From: a virus | Taxonomy: Duplodnaviria; Heunggongvirae; Uroviricota; Caudoviricetes | Length of the DNA: 40,270 bases | Strand: one strand, 5' to 3' | Virus record (IMG/VR): IMGVR_UViG_2740892440_000005 | Location: 1-40,270 of that record | Part shown: in pieces, positions 4,171 to 38,584 of the stretch | Layout of the letters: every line of letters begins with the position of its first letter | Position numbering within the stretch: the stretch's first letter is position 1 | Made by a program: the position numbers and the translations under genes | Notes under the pieces: model-generated | Told to the model about the DNA's origin: nothing | The model's input: only the letters and a program-made list of their open reading frames with translations | The model's database searches: none

Positions 4171-4464
4171 TCAGTCATTACTGATAGCGCCATAGCGTGA
4201 GCGGTAATTACGCAGGCGCGGGTCAATTTCAGGGAAGTGGGTATATGTGGCTTTGCGGAATGGTCGGATTGATGTCTGGTAAATTCGCTCGCGTTCTTCT
4301 TTCTCTGCAAGCCATATACAATGGCGAAATTCCTTTTCCTCTTTCGTTTCCTGCGGTAGCGACATTATCCGGTCGTAGTTTTTTCTGAATTTATCCAGCA
4401 CCTCCGATACGGAATTGCCGGAACAGCGGCGCGCGTCATCCGCACCATACAGAGGCGCTGGCAT
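4171..4464 (-). CDS. Hypothetical protein (97 aa)
   Basis: Track ORF; AGGAG RBS 6 nt upstream of ATG. Confidence 0.5.
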
Positions 4465-4480: not shown

Positions 4481-5029
4481 TTATTTAGCTAACTTTTTCC
4501 AGATCGCTGAAACGTATTTGGCTTGGTGAATGGCATCATCAAGCGCGTTGTGGCGAGTTCCTTTGAATGGCATATCTCGCTTAGGGTCGAATCCTATTAC
4601 CTTCCCAAGTTCGACGATTGTTCTTACGTCGCGGTCATTCCACCACTGCCACGGAACTGGCTGCCCTGTCAGCGAATAACTGTTTCGGAGAATAACGCAG
4701 TCAAATGATGCTCCATTCCCCCAAACCTGAACGAATTTGTGGTTAGCGTTCTTTATGATGAATTCAGATAACCATGAAAGAGCCGTTGAAAGCTCCTGAG
4801 TGTTGCTGGTTAGCGATTTTCTGGCTTCTTCACTCTGTTCCAGCCACCATAAAATCGTTGAAGCGTCAGGACGCGCCCGATATCGCATTGATGACTCAAG
4901 CGAGATATTTACCGAGAACTCTTCTCCTGTTTCTCCGGTATTCGGGTCAAAGAATACCGCCCCAATAGAAATAACTGGCGCGTATGGCCCGTTGCCCATT
5001 GTTTCAAGGTCAACCATCAAGTGATTCAT
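4481..5029 (-). CDS. DnaQ-like (DEDDh) 3'-5' exonuclease (182 aa)
   Basis: Motifs MVDLETMG (Exo I) and HNALDDA (Exo III) read in the translation; AAGGA RBS overlaps the ssb stop. Confidence 0.75.
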   Translation of the reverse strand: MNHLMVDLETMGNGPYAPVISIGAVFFDPNTGETGEEFSVNISLESSMRYRARPDASTILWWLEQSEEARKSLTSNTQELSTALSWLSEFIIKNANHKFVQVWGNGASFDCVILRNSYSLTGQPVPWQWWNDRDVRTIVELGKVIGFDPKRDMPFKGTRHNALDDAIHQAKYVSAIWKKLAK

Positions 5030-5037
5030 GTAAGTCC

Positions 5038-5553
5038 TTAAATTGCGTGAATAGCGTGACGAGGGAAGGGGAGAGTTACTGGTGCAAAGGGGGTATCGTC
5101 GTCAAAATCCATAGGTGGTTCGCTGTGATTTCCCTGCTGCTGAGGTTGCTGTCTTTGTTGCTGACCATTATTTCGCTGAGATGAAGACTGTTCATTGCCT
5201 CCTTGCTTGCCACCAAGCATTTGCATGGTTCCACCAACGCCCACGATGACTTCGGTAGTGAACCGATCCTGTCCGCTTTGATCCTGCCATTTTCTTGTCC
5301 GCAATTTGCCTTCAAGATAAACCTCAGAGCCTTTTCGCAGATATTCGCTGGCAATTTCTGCCAGTTTCCCGCTCATTACCACGCGGTGCCACTCCGTCTG
5401 CTCCTTTTGCTCTCCAGTTTTCTTATCACGCCATTGTTCTGACGTAGCAACGGTAAGGTTTGCAAATGCCGTTCCTGATGGTGAATATCTGATTTCTGGA
5501 TCATGCCCAAGGCGACCAATAATGATCACCTTATTTACGCCTCTGCTTGCCAT
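5038..5553 (-). CDS. ssb: Single-stranded DNA-binding protein with C-terminal extension (171 aa)
   Basis: N-terminus [16 protein letters not shown]...EQTEWHRVV and Gly/Gln-rich linker are classic SSB; the acidic tip MDFDDDTPF is followed by 15 more residues before TAA. Confidence 0.9.
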
Positions 5554-6261
5554 TTATGCCGCCTGTTTTAGTTCGTTAACTCTGATGTTCATTACCTGAA
5601 CGCATTTAGCCTGCGCCTCCTCGTTGCCAGCCATTAATTGCCAGTCACGCTGATAACGCTCGATGAGTTTTTTCTTGTCAGTTTCTGTCGCTGCATAATC
5701 GCTGAAGTCTTTCAGGATTTGTTCGCAGTCAACCGATGGAGATTTCTGGTTGGTATTTTCTGGTGATGGTTTGTTATCTGATGCCGGGATTGCCCATCCC
5801 GGCAGCGATGGAGGGAGCCAGTAGAATCCTGTTCCATCCTTGAGTTTTGCCCTGTGCCATCCCTGCTTTTTATCGAGAGATGTTTGTGCGAAACCTTCCT
5901 CAAGGTTATACAGATACCGACCGATTCCCCACTGAACGGCAGCACGCTTCATTGCACCGGAACGACCACCTTTGACGGCTTCTACCTGCGTGTTTTCAGC
6001 AGCATCCCATTTGGTTACCCATTCGGAATCAATCTTTATTGATATGCCGCATTCAACGCCGCCGTTGTTGGGAATATCGCGGTATTCATTGCGCCATCCT
6101 GCTTTGCCGCAAACATCGTCCAGGCGTTTCATGATTGCCCTGTTCGTGACATAAGCCAGCACCATAGCCCACACCTTTCCATCGCGTGTTTTACCGCTTT
6201 GCTGTATTCGCCATTCGATATCTTCAGGGCTGAATGGCTCATCGAATTTGTTCAAATCCAT
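5554..6261 (-). CDS. Rad52/Sak-type single-strand annealing protein (235 aa)
   Basis: Contains GIGRYLY-type core motif typical of Rad52-family phage annealing proteins; sits next to ssb and exonuclease. Confidence 0.7.
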   Translation of the reverse strand: MDLNKFDEPFSPEDIEWRIQQSGKTRDGKVWAMVLAYVTNRAIMKRLDDVCGKAGWRNEYRDIPNNGGVECGISIKIDSEWVTKWDAAENTQVEAVKGGRSGAMKRAAVQWGIGRYLYNLEEGFAQTSLDKKQGWHRAKLKDGTGFYWLPPSLPGWAIPASDNKPSPENTNQKSPSVDCEQILKDFSDYAATETDKKKLIERYQRDWQLMAGNEEAQAKCVQVMNIRVNELKQAA

Positions 6262-7915: not shown

Positions 7916-8542
7916 CTACCCGTAAAGCAGGAAGTGCTGCACTTGCTTTATCTGCTTCTTTTTGTAGTAACTCTTTGCTTTCAGGCCAAAATTCAATAAG
8001 TCGCTTATTGGTAGTAACTCTTTGCTTTCAGGCCAAACTTCAATAAGTCGCTTAACTGTTGTGACTGAGTTCAAAGCAGCCCATACATTTGATTCGATAT
8101 CCTTTTTCAAGGCATCAAGGTTTTGTTGCAATGCGCAGATTTCATCAAACCTTTTTGTTATTTCGTGTTCTGCGTCAAACATGCATTTATCTTTGGTTGG
8201 AGTAGGGAGCAATATATCTTCGCCGTTGCCGTCTTTCCCATATGAATGCCATCCAACCCTTCTGCCAGATACAGTCAGATAAATTGAAGTAGAACGAACA
8301 TCGTATGAGTAAAATGAACATCCCATCTTTCCAAGTTCTTCACTTATAGCTACCAACTTGGATGATAACTGATCCACTTCCTCAGTTTTCTTTTTACCGC
8401 CAAACGCAATAACTCTGGCGTCAAGTGCAAGCTGGTTCTTTAACTTTGTTACTTCTTCAAGTTCAGTGAAAACCCCAGACTTAATTAAAGCGTTACGAGC
8501 GATTTCCTCTTTCATTCTCGTAGTTAAGCGGATTGATGACAT
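7916..8542 (-). CDS. Hypothetical early-left protein (208 aa), 3' end altered by tandem duplication
   Basis: Start at MSSIRLTT with GAGG RBS; a 47-bp direct duplication lies inside the last about 30 codons. Confidence 0.5.
   Translation of the reverse strand: MSSIRLTTRMKEEIARNALIKSGVFTELEEVTKLKNQLALDARVIAFGGKKKTEEVDQLSSKLVAISEELGKMGCSFYSYDVRSTSIYLTVSGRRVGWHSYGKDGNGEDILLPTPTKDKCMFDAEHEITKRFDEICALQQNLDALKKDIESNVWAALNSVTTVKRLIEVWPESKELLPISDLLNFGLKAKSYYKKKQIKQVQHFLLYG
7961..8054. repeat. 47-bp tandem direct duplication (2 copies, 45/47 identical)
   Basis: Copies at 7961-8007 and 8008-8054 (core GTAGTAACTCTTTGCTTTCAGGCCAAA[A/C]TTCAATAAGTCGCTTA) read directly; 47 is not a multiple of 3. Confidence 0.85.
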
Positions 8543-8553
8543 ATTAATTCCTC

Positions 8554-8853
8554 TCAAATAAGTGGTTTGCTGCCTAATTTCATTTTCTGGCGACCAACAC
8601 AAGTCACACCCATTTCACTGCGTGGCTTGCGGTAGTAAATACGGTTCTGTTTACGCTCGACTTCTTCTGCCTTCTTGCAGCGAAGGCTTCCGAGTGATGC
8701 TGCTTTATCTGCTCTGACGCAACCAGAGAGCTTTAGCGCAATCTTTCGCGCCAGTCGCTGTTCTTGCATTGCCTGTTCACGTTGAGCCTGTCTGCGTGCT
8801 CTGCGGCGATTTCTGGCGTTATCGTCAGCCAGATATGTAATGACTACTGTCAT
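8554..8853 (-). CDS. N: N-type transcription antiterminator (99 aa)
   Basis: N-terminal arginine-rich motif NARNRRRARRQAQREQA; first gene downstream of pL/nutL; GGAGG RBS. Confidence 0.7.
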   Translation of the reverse strand: MTVVITYLADDNARNRRRARRQAQREQAMQEQRLARKIALKLSGCVRADKAASLGSLRCKKAEEVERKQNRIYYRKPRSEMGVTCVGRQKMKLGSKPLI

Positions 8854-9608: not shown

Positions 9609-10325
9609 TCAAACCAGTCTGAGTTTTGTCTCAATTGCAACGCCTATAATCTTGCAGTTTCCATTGATTGGCACGAGAGGCCATGCAGGATTAAGTCCCT
9701 TGAGGTATTTATTTCCGCCGTCGATTATCAGCTTCTTGAATGTTGCTTCGTTAGAGTCAGAAAGTTTTGCTATGACCAAGCTGCCGTTGATCGCCTCCCT
9801 TCCGGTATCGAAAAGAACGAATGTTCCCTCTGGAATGCTTAACCCAACCGGTGCCGTCATTGAATCACCTTCCACTTTAAGCCAAAACGCATTACCTTGA
9901 ATATGCGCGTCAGACTCAAGCCAAACATCTATGTCTTTAATGGTGTATGGTTCGCATGCTTCACACCACGAGCCAGCCTGGATACTGCTTAACACCGGAT
10001 ACCTCTTTCCTGCTCTGTATTCCCCTGCATACCTTACGTTGGCATCGCTCTTAAGGCTTTCTGCCTGTTCTGCAACCTTGGCAGCAATTGACTGGCTAAA
10101 ATCAGCAATTGAGACTTGCAACAATCGTGCAAAACCAGATGCAACCTCAACGTTTAGCGCGTTTCTGCCATTAAGATAATGCCCTACCGCTCCTTGGGTG
10201 ATACCCAGTTCATCAGCGATTGAGTATTGGGTTATTCCCAATTCTTTCTTTTTTGACTCATACAAAGCCTTAAGCCGCTTAGCGTCTTCGAGCTGTTCTG
10301 TCGTCAGTGATTTTTTATTTTCCAT
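9609..10325 (-). CDS. cI: CI-type prophage repressor (238 aa), HTH plus S24 autopeptidase domain
   Basis: N-terminus LTTEQLEDAKRLKALYESKKKELGITQ and C-terminal EGDSMTAP...TFKKLI are closely lambda-cI-like. Confidence 0.9.
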   Translation of the reverse strand: MENKKSLTTEQLEDAKRLKALYESKKKELGITQYSIADELGITQGAVGHYLNGRNALNVEVASGFARLLQVSIADFSQSIAAKVAEQAESLKSDANVRYAGEYRAGKRYPVLSSIQAGSWCEACEPYTIKDIDVWLESDAHIQGNAFWLKVEGDSMTAPVGLSIPEGTFVLFDTGREAINGSLVIAKLSDSNEATFKKLIIDGGNKYLKGLNPAWPLVPINGNCKIIGVAIETKLRLV

Positions 10326-13424: not shown

Positions 13425-13456
13425 AGGCCTGCTGGTAATCGCAGGCCTTTTTATTT
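13425..13456 (+). terminator. Intrinsic terminator-like hairpin after the helicase gene
   Basis: Stem AGGCCTGC/GCAGGCCT, 8-nt loop, then TTTTTATTT. The same sequence could instead encode a 27-aa hydrophobic peptide (13396-13479). Confidence 0.45.
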
Positions 13457-13471
13457 GGGGGAGGGTAAATC

Positions 13472-13678
13472 GTGGTTGAGTTGATTTTTTCTGCATTGAG
13501 GATTCTCGGTGCTATGTGGATGGTGGCGACGTTCATTGTGGTTGCCAGCAGTTTTGTCCGGTTGGTAGGCGAAGGTAAAGACCTGGTTGGTGTGCTTTTC
13601 GGTAGCATTTTTCTGTGGGCGATTATCGGTGTTATGCCTGTTGTCGTAGCAAAAGTGGCGTGGCGTTTTGTGAGTTAA
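13472..13678 (+). CDS. Small hydrophobic membrane protein (68 aa), GTG start
   Basis: GGAGGG RBS 7 nt upstream of GTG; translation has two hydrophobic segments. Confidence 0.45.
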   Translation: MVELIFSALRILGAMWMVATFIVVASSFVRLVGEGKDLVGVLFGSIFLWAIIGVMPVVVAKVAWRFVS

Positions 13679-13690
13679 TCGGAGGTTAAT

Positions 13691-14107
13691 TTGAGCAAGT
13701 GCCAAAAGTGCAATAACACAGGAATGTGTGATAGCGGAGGTTCTACTCCTTGGGGAGAGCCGATTTTTATTGAATGTGACTGCCTTATGAAAGATGACGA
13801 AAGCAGATGCCAGTTTGAAGAGAGTTGGTTACGACGTGGGGGCGAATCTTCAGACCTTATCCGTTACCCTGAAAATCACCATGAAATTGGCAGTGGTGAT
13901 ATTGGTGGTCAATACGTGATGGACGATGTTCAAGGCCACTGGCAAACGTGGCAGGCATCGAGAGCAGCTATTGAAATTGAGCTGCAAAAGCCAAAGAAAG
14001 GCCCACTTCCCGGTGATTATCACATTGGCTATGACTCAGGTGCAGAATCACAATACGAAAGCGATGTAGAGGCCATCCGCGCTGCTGGAGTTAAAGTGAA
14101 GGAGTGA
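13691..14107 (+). CDS. Hypothetical protein with N-terminal Cys cluster (138 aa), TTG start
   Basis: GGAGG RBS 5 nt upstream of TTG; CQKCNN...ECDC zinc-ribbon-like motif. Confidence 0.45.
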   Translation: MSKCQKCNNTGMCDSGGSTPWGEPIFIECDCLMKDDESRCQFEESWLRRGGESSDLIRYPENHHEIGSGDIGGQYVMDDVQGHWQTWQASRAAIEIELQKPKKGPLPGDYHIGYDSGAESQYESDVEAIRAAGVKVKE

Positions 14108-14109
14108 GT

Positions 14110-14250
14110 ATGAGACCGAAGATACTAGGCTGGCACATCTCGATATCATGGCAGCCGAAAACCAAGTGGGGGTATTTCTCGTTTTGGCATGATGGACCCA
14201 TGAGAGCATTCTGGATAGGCCACATCGTAATAGAGTGGTGGTGGCGATGA
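14110..14250 (+). CDS. Small Trp-rich hypothetical peptide (46 aa)
   Basis: Hand-translated; AAGGAG RBS 5 nt upstream; stop overlaps ninB start. Confidence 0.3.
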   Translation: MRPKILGWHISISWQPKTKWGYFSFWHDGPMRAFWIGHIVIEWWWR

Positions 14251-14657
14251 AGCAGACAATCTTCCTTCGAAGTAAGCAACAACAGCAAGCCGCAATCAAC
14301 GCCATCCTCGCAACTCCTCTCGATAAAGACAAGCCAGTCACCATCCGCATTACTGACTACAAGCGCAACCTTGACCAGAACGCAAAATTTCACGCGATGC
14401 TGGCGGATATCGCACGTCAGGTTCAATGGTGCGGCAAATGGTTAAAACCGAAACAATGGAAGGTTTTGTTGATCAGCGGTCATGCAGTGGCAACAAAACA
14501 GGAAGCTGATGTTTTGCCCGGCCTTGAAGGTGAATACGTCAACATTCGCGAAAGCAGCGCGCAGATGAGTGTGAAGCGTATGGCAAGTCTGATTGAGTAC
14601 ACGACAGCATGGGCTATTGGTCAGGGTGTCAGATTTACCGACAGGAGGTACGAATGA
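14247..14657 (+). CDS. ninB: NinB / Orf-family recombination mediator (136 aa)
   Basis: ...[27 protein letters not shown]... matches lambda NinB core. Confidence 0.8.
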
Positions 14658-14830
14658 GACGACAGCGACGAAGTTTCACCGATATCATCTGCGAAAACTG
14701 CAAATACCTTCCAACGAAACGCTCAAGAAATAAACGCAAGCCAATCCCAAAAGAATCTGACGTAAAAACCTTCAACTACACGGCTCACCTGTGGGATATC
14801 CGGTGGCTAAGACATCGTGCGAGGAAATGA
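14654..14830 (+). CDS. ninE: NinE-like small protein (58 aa)
   Basis: [29 protein letters not shown]...; AGGAGG RBS; ATGA overlap with ninB; nin-region position. Confidence 0.5.
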
Positions 14831-14832
14831 CA

Positions 14833-15207
14833 ATGGATTATTCACAGTTAAGTGATTTTGAAATTAACGTGGCGGTATTCGAAGCCATTCATAACGGATC
14901 ACCGGATTACAAAGAAGGTGAGAATGGCGATATGGTGTTTGTCTCATTTGAGGGAGACATTGTAAACGGAGACGCAGTTGAAGTAGAAGTTGAGCGCGGT
15001 TCCTTTAACCCATGCGCAAACCCAGCAGACGCATGGCCGATTATCATGGAAAACATGATCAGCGTATGTGCATACAAGCGAGCAAACCCTGGCATGAAAG
15101 CAGTGTCATGGTGGGAGGCTGATAGCTTTGGTGAGCATATTACTCTTGATGACAACCCTCTCCGCGCAGCCATGATTGTCTTTCTCATGATGCAGAGAAT
15201 CCAATAA
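14833..15207 (+). CDS. NinX-like (DUF2591-type) protein (124 aa)
   Basis: MDYSQLSDFEINVAVFEA... as recalled for NinX-family proteins; GAGGAAA RBS. Confidence 0.5.
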   Translation: MDYSQLSDFEINVAVFEAIHNGSPDYKEGENGDMVFVSFEGDIVNGDAVEVEVERGSFNPCANPADAWPIIMENMISVCAYKRANPGMKAVSWWEADSFGEHITLDDNPLRAAMIVFLMMQRIQ

Positions 15208-15383
15208 TGCTTAGCCCATCCCAATCCCTTCAATACCAGAAAGAAAGCGTCGAGCGAGCTTTAACGTGCGCTAACTGCGGTCAGAAGCTGCATGTGCTGG
15301 AAGTTCACGTGTGCTCCGATTGCTGCGCAGAACTGATGAGCGATCCGAATAGCTCAATGTACGAGGAAGAAGACGATGAATGA
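15207..15383 (+). CDS. ninF: NinF-like small Cys-containing protein (58 aa)
   Basis: Hand-translated MLSPSQSLQYQKESVERALTCANCGQKLHVLEVHVCSDCC..., resembling lambda NinF; TAATG overlap with upstream gene. Confidence 0.55.
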   Translation: MLSPSQSLQYQKESVERALTCANCGQKLHVLEVHVCSDCCAELMSDPNSSMYEEEDDE

Positions 15384-16098
15384 GTTAATAAATGGCAATG
15401 CCATCAAAATGACAAGCATTGAAATCGCTGAGTTGGTTGGTAAGCGTCATGACAATGTGAAACGTACCATCGAAACGCTGGCTAAAAATGGTGTTATCCG
15501 GCTTCCTCAAATTGAGGTTTCCGAAAGAATCAATAACTTAGGGTTCAATGTTCAGTACGAGCATTACGTCTTCGAAGGCGAACAAGGTAAGCGAGATAGT
15601 ATTGTTGTTGTTGCCCAGTTGTCGCCAGAGTTCACCGCTCGCCTTGTTGACCGTTGGCGAGAGCTTGAAGAAGCTGCGGTTAATATCCCAAAAACGCTAC
15701 CAGAAGCGTTGCGCCTTGCTGCTGACCTTGCTGAGCAGAAAATGCAACTGGAAAACCAGCTCGCAATTGCCGCACCTAAAGTTGAGTTTGCCGATCGCGT
15801 TGGCGAGGCCAGCGGAATTTTGATTGGAAACTTTGCAAAGGTTGTTGGAATTGGTCCAAACAAACTGTTTGCGTGGATGCGCGATCACAAAATCCTTATT
15901 GCTTCAGGTTCCCGGCGCAATGTACCAATGCAGGAATATATGGATCGCGGCTATTTCACCGTAAAAGAAACAGCGGTCAACACAAATCACGGAATACAGA
16001 TATCGTTCACCACAAAAATCACCGGGCGTGGCCAACAGTGGCTGACCAGAAAGCTGCTCGATAACGGAATGCTGAAAGTAACAGGGGAGGCTGCTTAA
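15376..16098 (+). CDS. Rha-family regulatory protein with C-terminal KilAC/antirepressor domain (240 aa)
   Basis: N-terminal Rha-like segment (TSIEIAELVGKRHDNVKRTIE) and C-terminal KilAC-like segment (GNFAKVVGIGPNKLFAWMRDHKIL). Confidence 0.75.
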   Translation: MNELINGNAIKMTSIEIAELVGKRHDNVKRTIETLAKNGVIRLPQIEVSERINNLGFNVQYEHYVFEGEQGKRDSIVVVAQLSPEFTARLVDRWRELEEAAVNIPKTLPEALRLAADLAEQKMQLENQLAIAAPKVEFADRVGEASGILIGNFAKVVGIGPNKLFAWMRDHKILIASGSRRNVPMQEYMDRGYFTVKETAVNTNHGIQISFTTKITGRGQQWLTRKLLDNGMLKVTGEAA

Positions 16099-16388
16099 TG
16101 GCTAATCTACGCAAAGAAGCGCGCGGCAGAGAATGCCAGGTACGTATTTACGGCGTATGCAATGGCAATCCTGAAACTACAGTTCTGGCACATTACCGGA
16201 TGGCTGGAATTTGCGGAACGGGGATGAAGCCTGACGACCTGATCGGCGCATGGGCTTGTAGCGACTGCCACGCGGAGATCGACCGACGCACCCATAACCT
16301 CGACAACAAAGACGCCAGACTTTACCACCTCGAAGGCGTGATCAGGACGCAGGCGATACTGCTGAAGGAGGGGAAGATTAAACCATGA
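16098..16388 (+). CDS. DUF1364 (YbcO-like) protein, putative nuclease (96 aa)
   Basis: MANLRKEARGRECQVRIYGVCNGNPETTVLAH...CSDCH matches my recollection of E. coli YbcO. Confidence 0.7.
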   Translation: MANLRKEARGRECQVRIYGVCNGNPETTVLAHYRMAGICGTGMKPDDLIGAWACSDCHAEIDRRTHNLDNKDARLYHLEGVIRTQAILLKEGKIKP

Positions 16389-16747
16389 ACGAATATCAGT
16401 TTGTGCTTCCATACCCGCCGTCGCTGAATACCTACTGGAGAAGACGGGGAAGCCAATACTACATCAGCGATAAAGGCCAGAAATACCGAAAAGACGTTCA
16501 GCAAATCATCCGCCAACTCAAGTTAGACATTTTCACCAAATCACGACTCCGTATCAAAGTCATCGCAGACGTTCCAGACTCCCGCCGCCGCGACCTCGAT
16601 AACATCCTGAAGGGTTTACTCGACTCCCTTATCCACGCCGGATTTGCGGAAGACGACGAGCAATTCGATGACATTCGCGTAATTCGTGGTGTGAAAGTAC
16701 CAGGCGGAAGGCTTGGAATAAAAATCACCGAACTGGAGAACGTATGA
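16385..16747 (+). CDS. rusA: RusA Holliday-junction resolvase (120 aa)
   Basis: ...DVPDSRRRDLDNILKGLLDSL... with the RusA catalytic Asp cluster. Confidence 0.85.
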   Translation: MNEYQFVLPYPPSLNTYWRRRGSQYYISDKGQKYRKDVQQIIRQLKLDIFTKSRLRIKVIADVPDSRRRDLDNILKGLLDSLIHAGFAEDDEQFDDIRVIRGVKVPGGRLGIKITELENV

Positions 16748-16932
16748 ACGCCACAATTCAAACGATACCAGAGCTTCTTATCCAGACACGAGGCAATCAG
16801 ACCGAAGTGGCAAGGATGCTTTCCTGTGCAAGAGGAACAGTGCTCAAGTACAACCGAGACAGCAAAGGCGAGCGTCACGTAATAGTTAACGGCGTCCTGA
16901 TGGTCACGCCAGGCAAAAAGGGAAGACGATGA
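16744..16932 (+). CDS. ninH: NinH-like protein (62 aa)
   Basis: ...GNQTEVARMLSCARGTVLKY... resembles lambda NinH. Confidence 0.6.
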   Translation: MNATIQTIPELLIQTRGNQTEVARMLSCARGTVLKYNRDSKGERHVIVNGVLMVTPGKKGRR

Positions 16933-36058: not shown

Positions 36059-36081
36059 ATGCAATCACATCATGGTTGCAT
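36059..36081. promoter_or_regulatory. Palindrome ATGCAA-N11-TTGCAT between mnt and tailspike (candidate operator)
   Basis: Inverted repeat read directly in the divergent intergenic region. Confidence 0.3.
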
Positions 36082-36106
36082 CATATCATTCGTTTGGAGC
36101 AATGAA

Positions 36107-38584
36107 ATGCCAGATATCACCGCAAATGTTGTAGTGAGCATGCCTTCGCAACTCTTCACTATGGCCCGCTCTTTTAAAGCCGTAGCTAATGGCAAAATTT
36201 ATATCGGTAAAATTGACACTGACCCGGTAAATCCTGAAAACCGGATTCAGGTTTATGTAGAGAATGAAGACGGTTCTCACGTTCCTGTTTCTCAACCAAT
36301 CATCATTAACGCTGCCGGTTATCCGGTATATAACGGACGGATTGCCAAGTTCGTTACTGTGCAAGGGCATTCTATGGCTGTTTATGATGCGTATGGTGCA
36401 CAGCAGTTTTATTTCCCTAATGTACTGAAGTACGATCCAGATCAACTTCGACAAGATTTATCTATGGAGCATGGCTCCCTGTTGATTGGAGGGGTAATTG
36501 ATATATTTGATTCAGTTAAAAATTTAATAGACACATCCCCTGGCGGTGATAGGGTTATATATTGCCATGGTTTTTACAATAACGGTGATGGCGGTTGCGG
36601 AACGTGGATAAGAAAATCTGATTATGATGGTGGTGAATATACAGGTCTTCCCGTTATTTTGAATGGGAAAGTTATTATATTTACTAAAGACAGTCTTGCT
36701 TACGAGCTCCTTATTGAAGATGAGATAGATATAAGAAAACTAGGAGCAAATGAAGAGGAACCAATTGATTATGTATTTTCATTGGCTGCCGATGTATGTA
36801 GAATAAACAATATAGTTAACAAGATTGTTATATATGGCAAATATATCCATAAGAACCCTTTAATTATACCTCCTGGCGTTTTTGTAGATTACATAGATTA
36901 TGATTATTCATGGACTAAAAAAATCACAAATAATAAATCAGGACTACCAACATTAACTGGTTCATATGGCGGTGATCTTATTATGGATGTTGATGCATGC
37001 ATAATACTTGATCACGGATACGGGCACAGAATTGATAATTTCAACATAAAATGCGACGCACCAGTCAGCGTTGAACACGCTATCTATCATGGATTTACCA
37101 GAGAAACAAATATTGCACAGACCATAGGGAGAATTGGCGAGTCTGGATCAACTCTTAAGTACAAGCCTATGCACGGTATAACCGCACAGCAGGGGTTTGT
37201 GCATAACTATGGCAATATAACAGCTTTTACGCAAAAAGGAACGTGGAACTATATCTTCAACACGGCTGGAACAGGATGTAACCTTATTAAGGTACGCCAG
37301 TCTTGGAACTATGATTCAACAGAGACGGCAATACGTTTCCAAGGTTCTACTAACGTATCTCTCGGTCAACAGTATTGCGAACAAACAAAGCAACGTATTT
37401 ATGAGTTTTATGGTTGTACAGGTGGGGTTATTGATGTTCTTAGCATTGATAACCACGAATGCAATCAGGTCGCATCGGCCCTGTATACCAGAAACTCACA
37501 AATAACACTTGGAGCGCTTACTGTAAACGCAGTAACAGTTGCAACAGGCGTTTCTGCGAAATTCATTGAACATACAGTTGGTACTGGGATATACGGATGT
37601 TTGACAATCAATGGAATAACAGCAAGAACAATCCAGCTTAATGTCCCGAATCTGACAACAATTACAAAGGATAACGGAGGAGTTGGTAACAACTGTGTCA
37701 TTCGAGGAATGCCAATCCCGCCGATAGGCGCACTCGGTAATATAGGTGCAACAGATGCATCCACTGTTAGCCAAGAATCTGATACAGGTGTGGTGTCAAC
37801 GCCTCATTATCGTAGCGTTTCTTGTAGCTTTGGTTCGCAAGCATCCGGTGCGAGATCATCGGTAATTGATAGTTTTAGCTGCCATGCTGCCACAGAAGGT
37901 TCTACAGTTATCTCCAGCACAATAACCAAGTCGGCTGAGTCTTTCGAGGTCTGTGGAGGATATGGCGGAACAACTGTAGGCAACCCACTAACAGGAAATA
38001 GAAAGTGGTCCATATCTTCTTTGTACGGGACGATCAAAGCATCTGGAGCAATAACTAATGGGGCCAGTTTTGCTGATTATGCTGAGTACTTTGAGAACGC
38101 AGAATTGGGAGTTATTCCTCTTGGTACGCTTGTAGACCTAATTGGTGACAAGGTGGCGCCAGCTAATGGTGATGATTTTGTTGGCGTTGTTTCTGGAACT
38201 GCTGGTGTAATATTAAACTCAGCATCACTTGTATGGTCAGGCAAGTATTTGACTGGTGATCACGGAGAGCCAATCTATGAATACATAGATGGAGTGAAGG
38301 TTAGAAAAATAAATCCTGATTACTCTCCTGAAATGGTACTTGCTGGGTTTGACGATGAAGGAAATGAAGTTTACACAGAAAATTATATACCACGTGAAGA
38401 AAGACCAGATGAATGGTCATGCGTAGGTCTTATTGGTCAGGTTTACGTTAACGTCTCTTATGCTGTAAAGATTGGTGATTGGCTTACCGCAATTAATGGC
38501 GTTGGTGTTCCATCTGAAACTAAGACACGGCTCAGAGTTATGTCAATAGTATCTGAAGGTATAGCTAAGTGTATTATAAAATAG
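36107..38584 (+). CDS. Tailspike: P22 gp9-type head-binding N-terminus, divergent AT-rich receptor-binding domain, C-terminal chaperone-like domain (825 aa)
   Basis: [43 protein letters not shown] matches P22 gp9 residues 1 to about 115; GGAG RBS; composition turns AT-rich from about 36470; ...[11 protein letters not shown]... near the C-terminus. Confidence 0.85.

Follow-up and report, generated by a model that had tools for sequence, protein, structure and literature searches.

The roi-ybcO-rusA segment of a P22-like coliphage or prophage as a commonplace form of the phage nin region

Which genes stand between ninF and ninH in this phage, and do they make up an unusual regulatory arrangement? 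In the initial annotation of the window (the whole 40,270-nt stretch of DNA analyzed here), a 240-aa protein with Rha and KilAC domains and a YbcO-like DUF1364 protein were assigned to the place where lambda and P22 carry ninG. It was suggested that an antirepressor-type regulator at this position might affect the lysis-lysogeny decision or cross-talk with co-resident prophages. Judged by its matches, the window represents a mosaic, P22-like coliphage or prophage: the early half is similar to HZ41, CUS-3, HK620-type phages, and Stx phages, and the late half to IME10 and further phages of the Lederbergvirus type. The locus is, with high confidence, the known roi / gp66 (HkbD, YbcO-like) / rusA nin segment of HK022-, HK97-, and HK620-type phages, with Roi as a DNA-binding regulator of the known type.

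Both flagged reading frames were present in the ORF list, at 15376-16098 (+, 240 aa) and 16098-16388 (+, 96 aa), each starting with ATG. The surrounding genes were assigned by Pfam, and the order ninB-ninE-ninX-ninF-roi-ybcO-rusA-ninH-Q forms one translationally coupled nin operon. Upstream of the pair lie ninB (14235-14657), ninE (14609-14830), ninX (14791-15207), and ninF (15207-15383, +; NinF, 8.2e-14), the last of which overlaps the start of roi by 8 nt, as read from the sequence. Downstream follow the Holliday-junction resolvase gene rusA (16385-16747, +; RusA, 2.4e-16; PHROG 34 at 3.5e-53), ninH (16744-16932, +; Phage_NinH, 5.3e-23), and, at the downstream end of the operon, the gene for a 172-aa Q antiterminator of the HK75/HK629/CUS-3 type (16929-17447, +; Phage_antitermQ, 1.3e-25; PHROG 943 at 2.6e-93). 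Start and stop codons are shared as TAATG at the roi/ybcO junction and as ATGA at each of the ybcO/rusA, rusA/ninH, and ninH/Q junctions. The neighbors named in the initial annotation (ninB, ninE, a ninX-like gene, ninF, rusA, ninH, and Q) were therefore all recovered by Pfam.

The placement of the two genes in a delayed-early operon also proved correct, since roi and ybcO sit between a tR2-like terminator and pR'. The upstream boundary is an intrinsic terminator predicted by consensus scan at 13425-13448 (+), 3' of the DnaB-type P gene, with an 8-bp stem that includes six G-C pairs and is followed by a T-run. In HK620, tR2 is annotated at the equivalent place. Beyond Q, a pR'-like promoter (17425-17454, +) agrees with the consensus at 11 of 12 positions, and a tR'-like hairpin terminator lies at 17495-17515 (+); HK629 has a promoter and a terminator annotated in the DNA that matches this part of the window (17425-17515). 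Within the nin operon, the search for internal promoters gave seven matches compared to 6.7 expected in shuffles, the sole strong one being pR' after Q. One-mismatch matches to the LexA box numbered 16 compared to 14.5 expected, and none of them fell in the nin operon (13.4-17.4 kb). The Rfam scan of the window gave no match at gathering scores. Between the tR2-like terminator and ninB (13472-14107, +) there are two reading frames without a Pfam match, one of 68 aa, apparently hydrophobic, and one of 138 aa with a Cys-rich N-terminus.

Downstream of the operon, a homing-endonuclease-like gene with HNH_3 and AP2 domains (17642-18154, +) has been inserted after the pR'/tR' late leader and before the holin gene, at the position occupied in Stx phages by the toxin genes. 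Among 50,697 phage records, the full insertion was common only to HK629 (two records). The lambda-R-type lysozyme gene (18949-19425) lacks one nucleotide of a G-run at ~19319-19320, ATCTGGGCTT becoming ATCTGGCTT in comparison with HK620 and HK022. As a result, the reading frame ends in an altered C-terminal tail at 19374 and not at ~19425, where it would overlap the start of Rz (19421). This deletion is either a homopolymer sequencing error or a real defect of a decaying prophage. The tailspike (36059-38584, +) combines a P22-type head-binding domain with a C-terminal Peptidase_G2 intramolecular-chaperone autocleavage domain, and its receptor-binding part is unlike those of P22 and HK620.

By its similarity to named proteins, the 240-aa gene is the already-named gene roi (15376-16098, +; PHROG 63). 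The Roi references used were those of coliphages HK022, HK97, and HK620 (GenBank records AAK28878, AAF31140, AUM59832). [quoted passage not shown] The whole protein matches phrog_63, 'anti-repressor Ant', at 9.8e-100. A sequence search of the PDB with Roi gave no match at E <= 1.

Over 240 aa, Roi of the window is 99% identical to that of HK620, 88% to that of HK97, and 89% to that of HK022; Roi of Stx phage 2851 shares 82% identity with it. The KilAC/ANT domain is near-invariant across the four Roi proteins of the window, HK620, HK97, and HK022, and the differences from HK97 and HK022 are all confined to residues 22-63. The corresponding block (15439-15564, +) is mosaic, being of the HK620 type as opposed to the HK022/HK97 type. 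At the nucleotide level, identity to HK022 roi is 100% in nt 1-62 but 57% in nt 63-150. This pattern suggests that DNA-binding specificity has been exchanged by recombination within the gene, in codons 22-63. Repeats in roi were considered as a candidate Roi operator, but they amounted to short matches (10-15 nt) of the kind that chance produces, and none was assigned as an operator. At least three versions of codons 22-63, which include the putative recognition helix, were seen between near-identical flanks: that of HK620 and the window, that of HK022 and HK97, and that of Stx phages.

The second gene (16098-16388, +), the counterpart of HK97 gp66 and HK620 HkbD, encodes a 96-aa putative nuclease of the His-Me finger (HNH-type) kind. 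The family PF07102, 'Putative nuclease YbcO' (formerly DUF1364), spans the whole protein at 147.2 bits compared to a cut-off of 29.9 (1.4e-43), and phrog_131, 'HNH endonuclease', is matched at 4.6e-49. All three domain calls of the initial annotation (Rha, KilAC, and DUF1364) were thus supported by domain searches, with scores above the cut-offs. The protein shares 100% of its residues with HK97 gp66 and 99% with HK620 HkbD. Its identity to phage 82 orf96 is 69.5%, and ~30% of its residues differ from the YbcO proteins of DLP12 and phage 82. The crystal structure of YbcO from the DLP12 prophage (PDB 3g27) was matched at 2.9e-38 with conservation of C13, C21, H32, C54, C57, H58, and D62; this set includes four Cys together with His residues, that is, the zinc-binding Cys and the His of the His-Me finger. 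DUF1364/YbcO has been classed as group 7 of the His-Me finger families, with RusA, Q, and an antirepressor as its typical neighbors and a proposed role in recombination (PMC5714182). The Pfam label reads 'putative nuclease', and no biochemical demonstration of YbcO nuclease activity was found in the literature.

The initial annotation implied that this arrangement was unusual. Comparison of nin regions showed the opposite: it is the standard form in HK022, HK97, HK620, and many lambdoid and P22-like coliphages. The annotated records of HK620, HK97, and HK022 share the order ninE-ninF-roi-gp66/HkbD-rusA-ninH-Q. With a 301-nt probe across the roi-ybcO junction, the intact junction was found in 34 phage records. 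Its carriers include HK022, HK97, HK620, HK75, HK140, HK542, HK629, HK633, mEpX1, mEpX2, and mEp506, and further CUS-3, Kapi1, N7, JEP4, E212, HZ41, Gally, a Klebsiella phage, and two Stx phages. The entire segment from ninF to rusA was found at >=80% coverage in 556 of the 5426 complete E. coli genomes (~10%), and lambda-type ninG, taken for comparison, in 1108 of the same 5426; both forms are therefore common alternatives. Judged by this comparison, the arrangement is an ordinary and already known variant of the phage nin region. The genes, their names, order, and distribution are already contained in public records and in papers of 1996 to 2017.

The order that had been expected from P22 and lambda also needs correction with respect to rusA. 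Between ninF and ninH, lambda carries ninG and P22 carries ninG-ninY, and the orders ninF-ninG-ninH and ninF-ninG-ninY-ninH place rusA outside both. In the window, the same interval holds three genes: roi, the ybcO-like gene, and rusA. The view that roi and ybcO together take the ninG slot was right in one respect, since the window carries no detectable ninG: the best tblastn match to the NinG proteins of lambda and P22 had an E of 1.9, and none of the ten nin-region proteins matched NinG (PF05766) in Pfam. It was wrong with regard to roi, which immediately precedes ninG in 185 phage records, most of them of Stx phages; the alternative to ninG is ybcO-rusA. Stx phage 2851 has antB-roi-ninG-pphA-Q without ybcO or rusA. 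Phage 82 has orf96 (YbcO)-rus-orf45-Q without roi, and mEp043 matches just the ybcO half of the junction probe. Taken together, the occurrence of ybcO without roi in phage 82 and mEp043 and the roi-ninG junctions indicate that ybcO-rusA is a cassette alternating with ninG and that roi is a separate module, which assorts independently and precedes either. This explicit split of roi from the alternation of ybcO-rusA with ninG is mildly new. The alternation makes functional sense because recombination junctions are acted on by NinG (Rap) as well as by RusA and because DUF1364, like NinG, is a His-Me finger family. YbcO as a diverged fragment of NinG was also considered and rejected, as the two proteins show no similarity (E 8.6).

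Inside roi, at 15528-15540 (+), the IHF consensus AATCAATAACTTA lies over the codons for I-N-N-L. It is a perfect match to WATCAANNNNTTR, one of only two such matches in the 40-kb window. A consensus match is located at the same codons of roi in the window, HK620, HK97, and HK022; it falls where the gene has diverged most and yet is retained in all four. The consensus is absent from the Stx-type roi of phage 2851. This site is likely the counterpart of the IHF site in HK022 roi. Since it overlaps a conserved peptide motif (I-N-N/D-L-G), its conservation may partly be at the protein level. However, given the peptide and the codon usage of the window, the chance of the consensus arising is ~0.05, which makes selection at the DNA level likely. 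The proteins encoded by roi and P22 rha are only 40% identical where the 13-nt consensus that they share encodes I-N-N-L. In P22 rha, the identical AATCAATAACTTA is located at 4336-4348 of the P22 record, at the homologous peptide motif K-I-N-N-L-G. The identity of this consensus at the DNA level between roi and P22 rha is the other mildly new point.

Along the lines of the initial annotation, Roi could also be a true antirepressor that binds and inactivates the cI repressor of its phage or those of co-resident prophages, tipping the lysis-lysogeny decision towards lysis. Domains of the KilAC/ANT and Rha types are found in annotated antirepressors, PHROG 63 bears the label 'anti-repressor Ant', and Roi of HK97 and HK620 is often annotated as 'anti-repressor'. 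However, this is a homology label, and it is unclear what exactly these domains do (PMC9043618). The control of the gene argues against it as well. Functional antirepressors (P22 Ant, P1 Ant1, and the Gifsy type) have their own control through an immI-type Mnt/Arc system or a LexA box, whereas roi overlaps ninF, is embedded in the pR operon, and has neither a LexA box (13.4-17.4 kb) nor a promoter better than chance. Consequently, Roi would be made only once cI repression has already been lifted. Induction would need no antirepressor either, since the cI of the window (9609-10325, minus strand) is a self-cleaving repressor with HTH_3 and a Peptidase_S24 autocleavage domain, cleavable in SOS. 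Furthermore, in the passages of PMC3430580 and PMC4587872 that cite Clerget & Boccard 1996, HK022 Roi is treated as a DNA-binding protein linked to lytic growth in IHF mutants, and not as a demonstrated antirepressor. AntB, the neighbor of Roi in Stx phages, shows negligible similarity to it. On this evidence, we regard a true antirepressor as very improbable. Two related candidates were rejected: AntB as a paralogue of Roi, by the same negligible similarity, and an SOS-controlled antirepressor, as no LexA box occurs in the nin operon.

By analogy with AriS of Listeria, Roi might instead be a dual regulator whose Rha domain acts on phage genes and whose KilAC domain damps host RecA/SOS during lytic development; such a protein would have indirect effects on other SOS-inducible prophages of the same cell. 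Overexpression of the ANT/KilAC domain of AriS inhibits SOS, and pRha with KilAC, exactly the composition of Roi, is one of the three AriS-like architectures (PMC9043618). However, this precedent concerns distant homologues in Firmicutes, overexpression was needed for the effect, and native levels left SOS gene transcription unaltered (PMC9043618). An AriS-like function would also leave the IHF-linked phenotype unexplained, and we consider it quite improbable. The two lines could be combined: the IHF site kept at the DNA level in roi and P22 rha may act in cis to let IHF restrain Roi/Rha (or read-through to Q), while KilAC damps RecA/SOS as AriS does. This combination is unlikely, but if it were true, roi, a common nin-region gene, would truly take part in cross-talk between co-resident prophages. 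If such cross-talk is real, AriS, the closest experimental precedent (PMC9043618), points to damping of SOS by KilAC and not to repressor binding.

The preferred explanation remains the known nin segment with Roi as a DNA-binding regulator. The genes roi, ybcO, and rusA would be transcribed from pR within the N-antiterminated delayed-early operon, roi and ybcO being translationally coupled with ninF upstream and rusA-ninH-Q downstream. Roi would be a two-domain DNA-binding regulator with an N-terminal Rha-type helix-turn-helix and a C-terminal KilAC domain. As in HK022, it would bind inside its own gene by the IHF site and inhibit lytic growth when host IHF is lacking. In the work of Clerget & Boccard of 1996 (J Bacteriol 178:4077), Roi is said to bind a site in its own gene adjoining the IHF site, and point mutations in roi reportedly permit growth on IHF-deficient hosts.

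From the observed gene identities, order, coupling, distribution, and site conservation, we infer biochemical activities for the two remaining genes. The YbcO-like gp66 is probably a small zinc-containing nuclease of the His-Me finger kind. Together with RusA, it would supply the processing of branched DNA and Holliday junctions that NinG (Rap) gives lambda and P22; the linkage of the two genes suggests that YbcO and RusA are a functional pair. Both would work beside the Rad52-type annealase, SSB, and NinB/Orf of the phage, and the annealase, SSB, NinB/Orf, YbcO, and RusA could together represent a complete recombination toolkit. In the early-left operon (4481-6261, -), genes for an Rv2179c-like 3'-5' exoribonuclease-domain protein (2.9e-73), SSB, and a Rad52/22-type annealase stand consecutively, forming a recombination module complementary to NinB, YbcO, and RusA. 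The pL operon also encodes a 228-aa protein (7916-8602, -) with Nmad5, 'nucleotide modification associated domain 5' (7.8e-59), whose gene overlaps the end of a weak N-like reading frame (8554-8853).

With named genes in a standard arrangement, the locus carries little weight for discovery. The useful outcome is a corrected picture of nin-region mosaicism, in which ybcO-rusA and ninG are alternative cassettes for junction processing and roi precedes either of them. The database tag 'anti-repressor' on Roi is based on homology and should not be taken as a demonstrated function.

Among known systems, Roi proteins of HK022, HK97, and HK620 correspond to that of the window in length (within one residue), in the position between ninF and gp66/HkbD, and in the intragenic IHF consensus. 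In residues 22-63, which contain the putative recognition helix, Roi of the window is of the HK620 type, unlike the experimentally studied Roi of HK022, and its DNA-site specificity could therefore differ. Phage 82 orf96 lies directly upstream of rusA, as does ybcO in the window. NinG (Rap) of lambda and P22 occupies the same ninF-ninH interval as roi-ybcO-rusA, but it is one 204-aa protein compared to a pair of 96 and 120 aa. It resembles YbcO in belonging to a His-Me finger family and RusA in acting on recombination junctions (PMC5714182). P22 Rha shares the Rha-type N-terminal domain with Roi (40% identity over 43 aa), but it gave no KilAC match in the pairwise comparison with Roi, and its gene lies downstream of the lysis genes, outside the nin region. 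The Rha products of P22 and phi80 reportedly inhibit phage growth in IHF mutants (Henthorn & Friedman, 1995), and presumably they belong to the same class of IHF-linked phenotype as Roi. AriS of Listeria phage phi10403S is more remote, having an AntA/AntB N-terminal domain, a Gram-positive host, and distant homology to Roi (PMC9043618).
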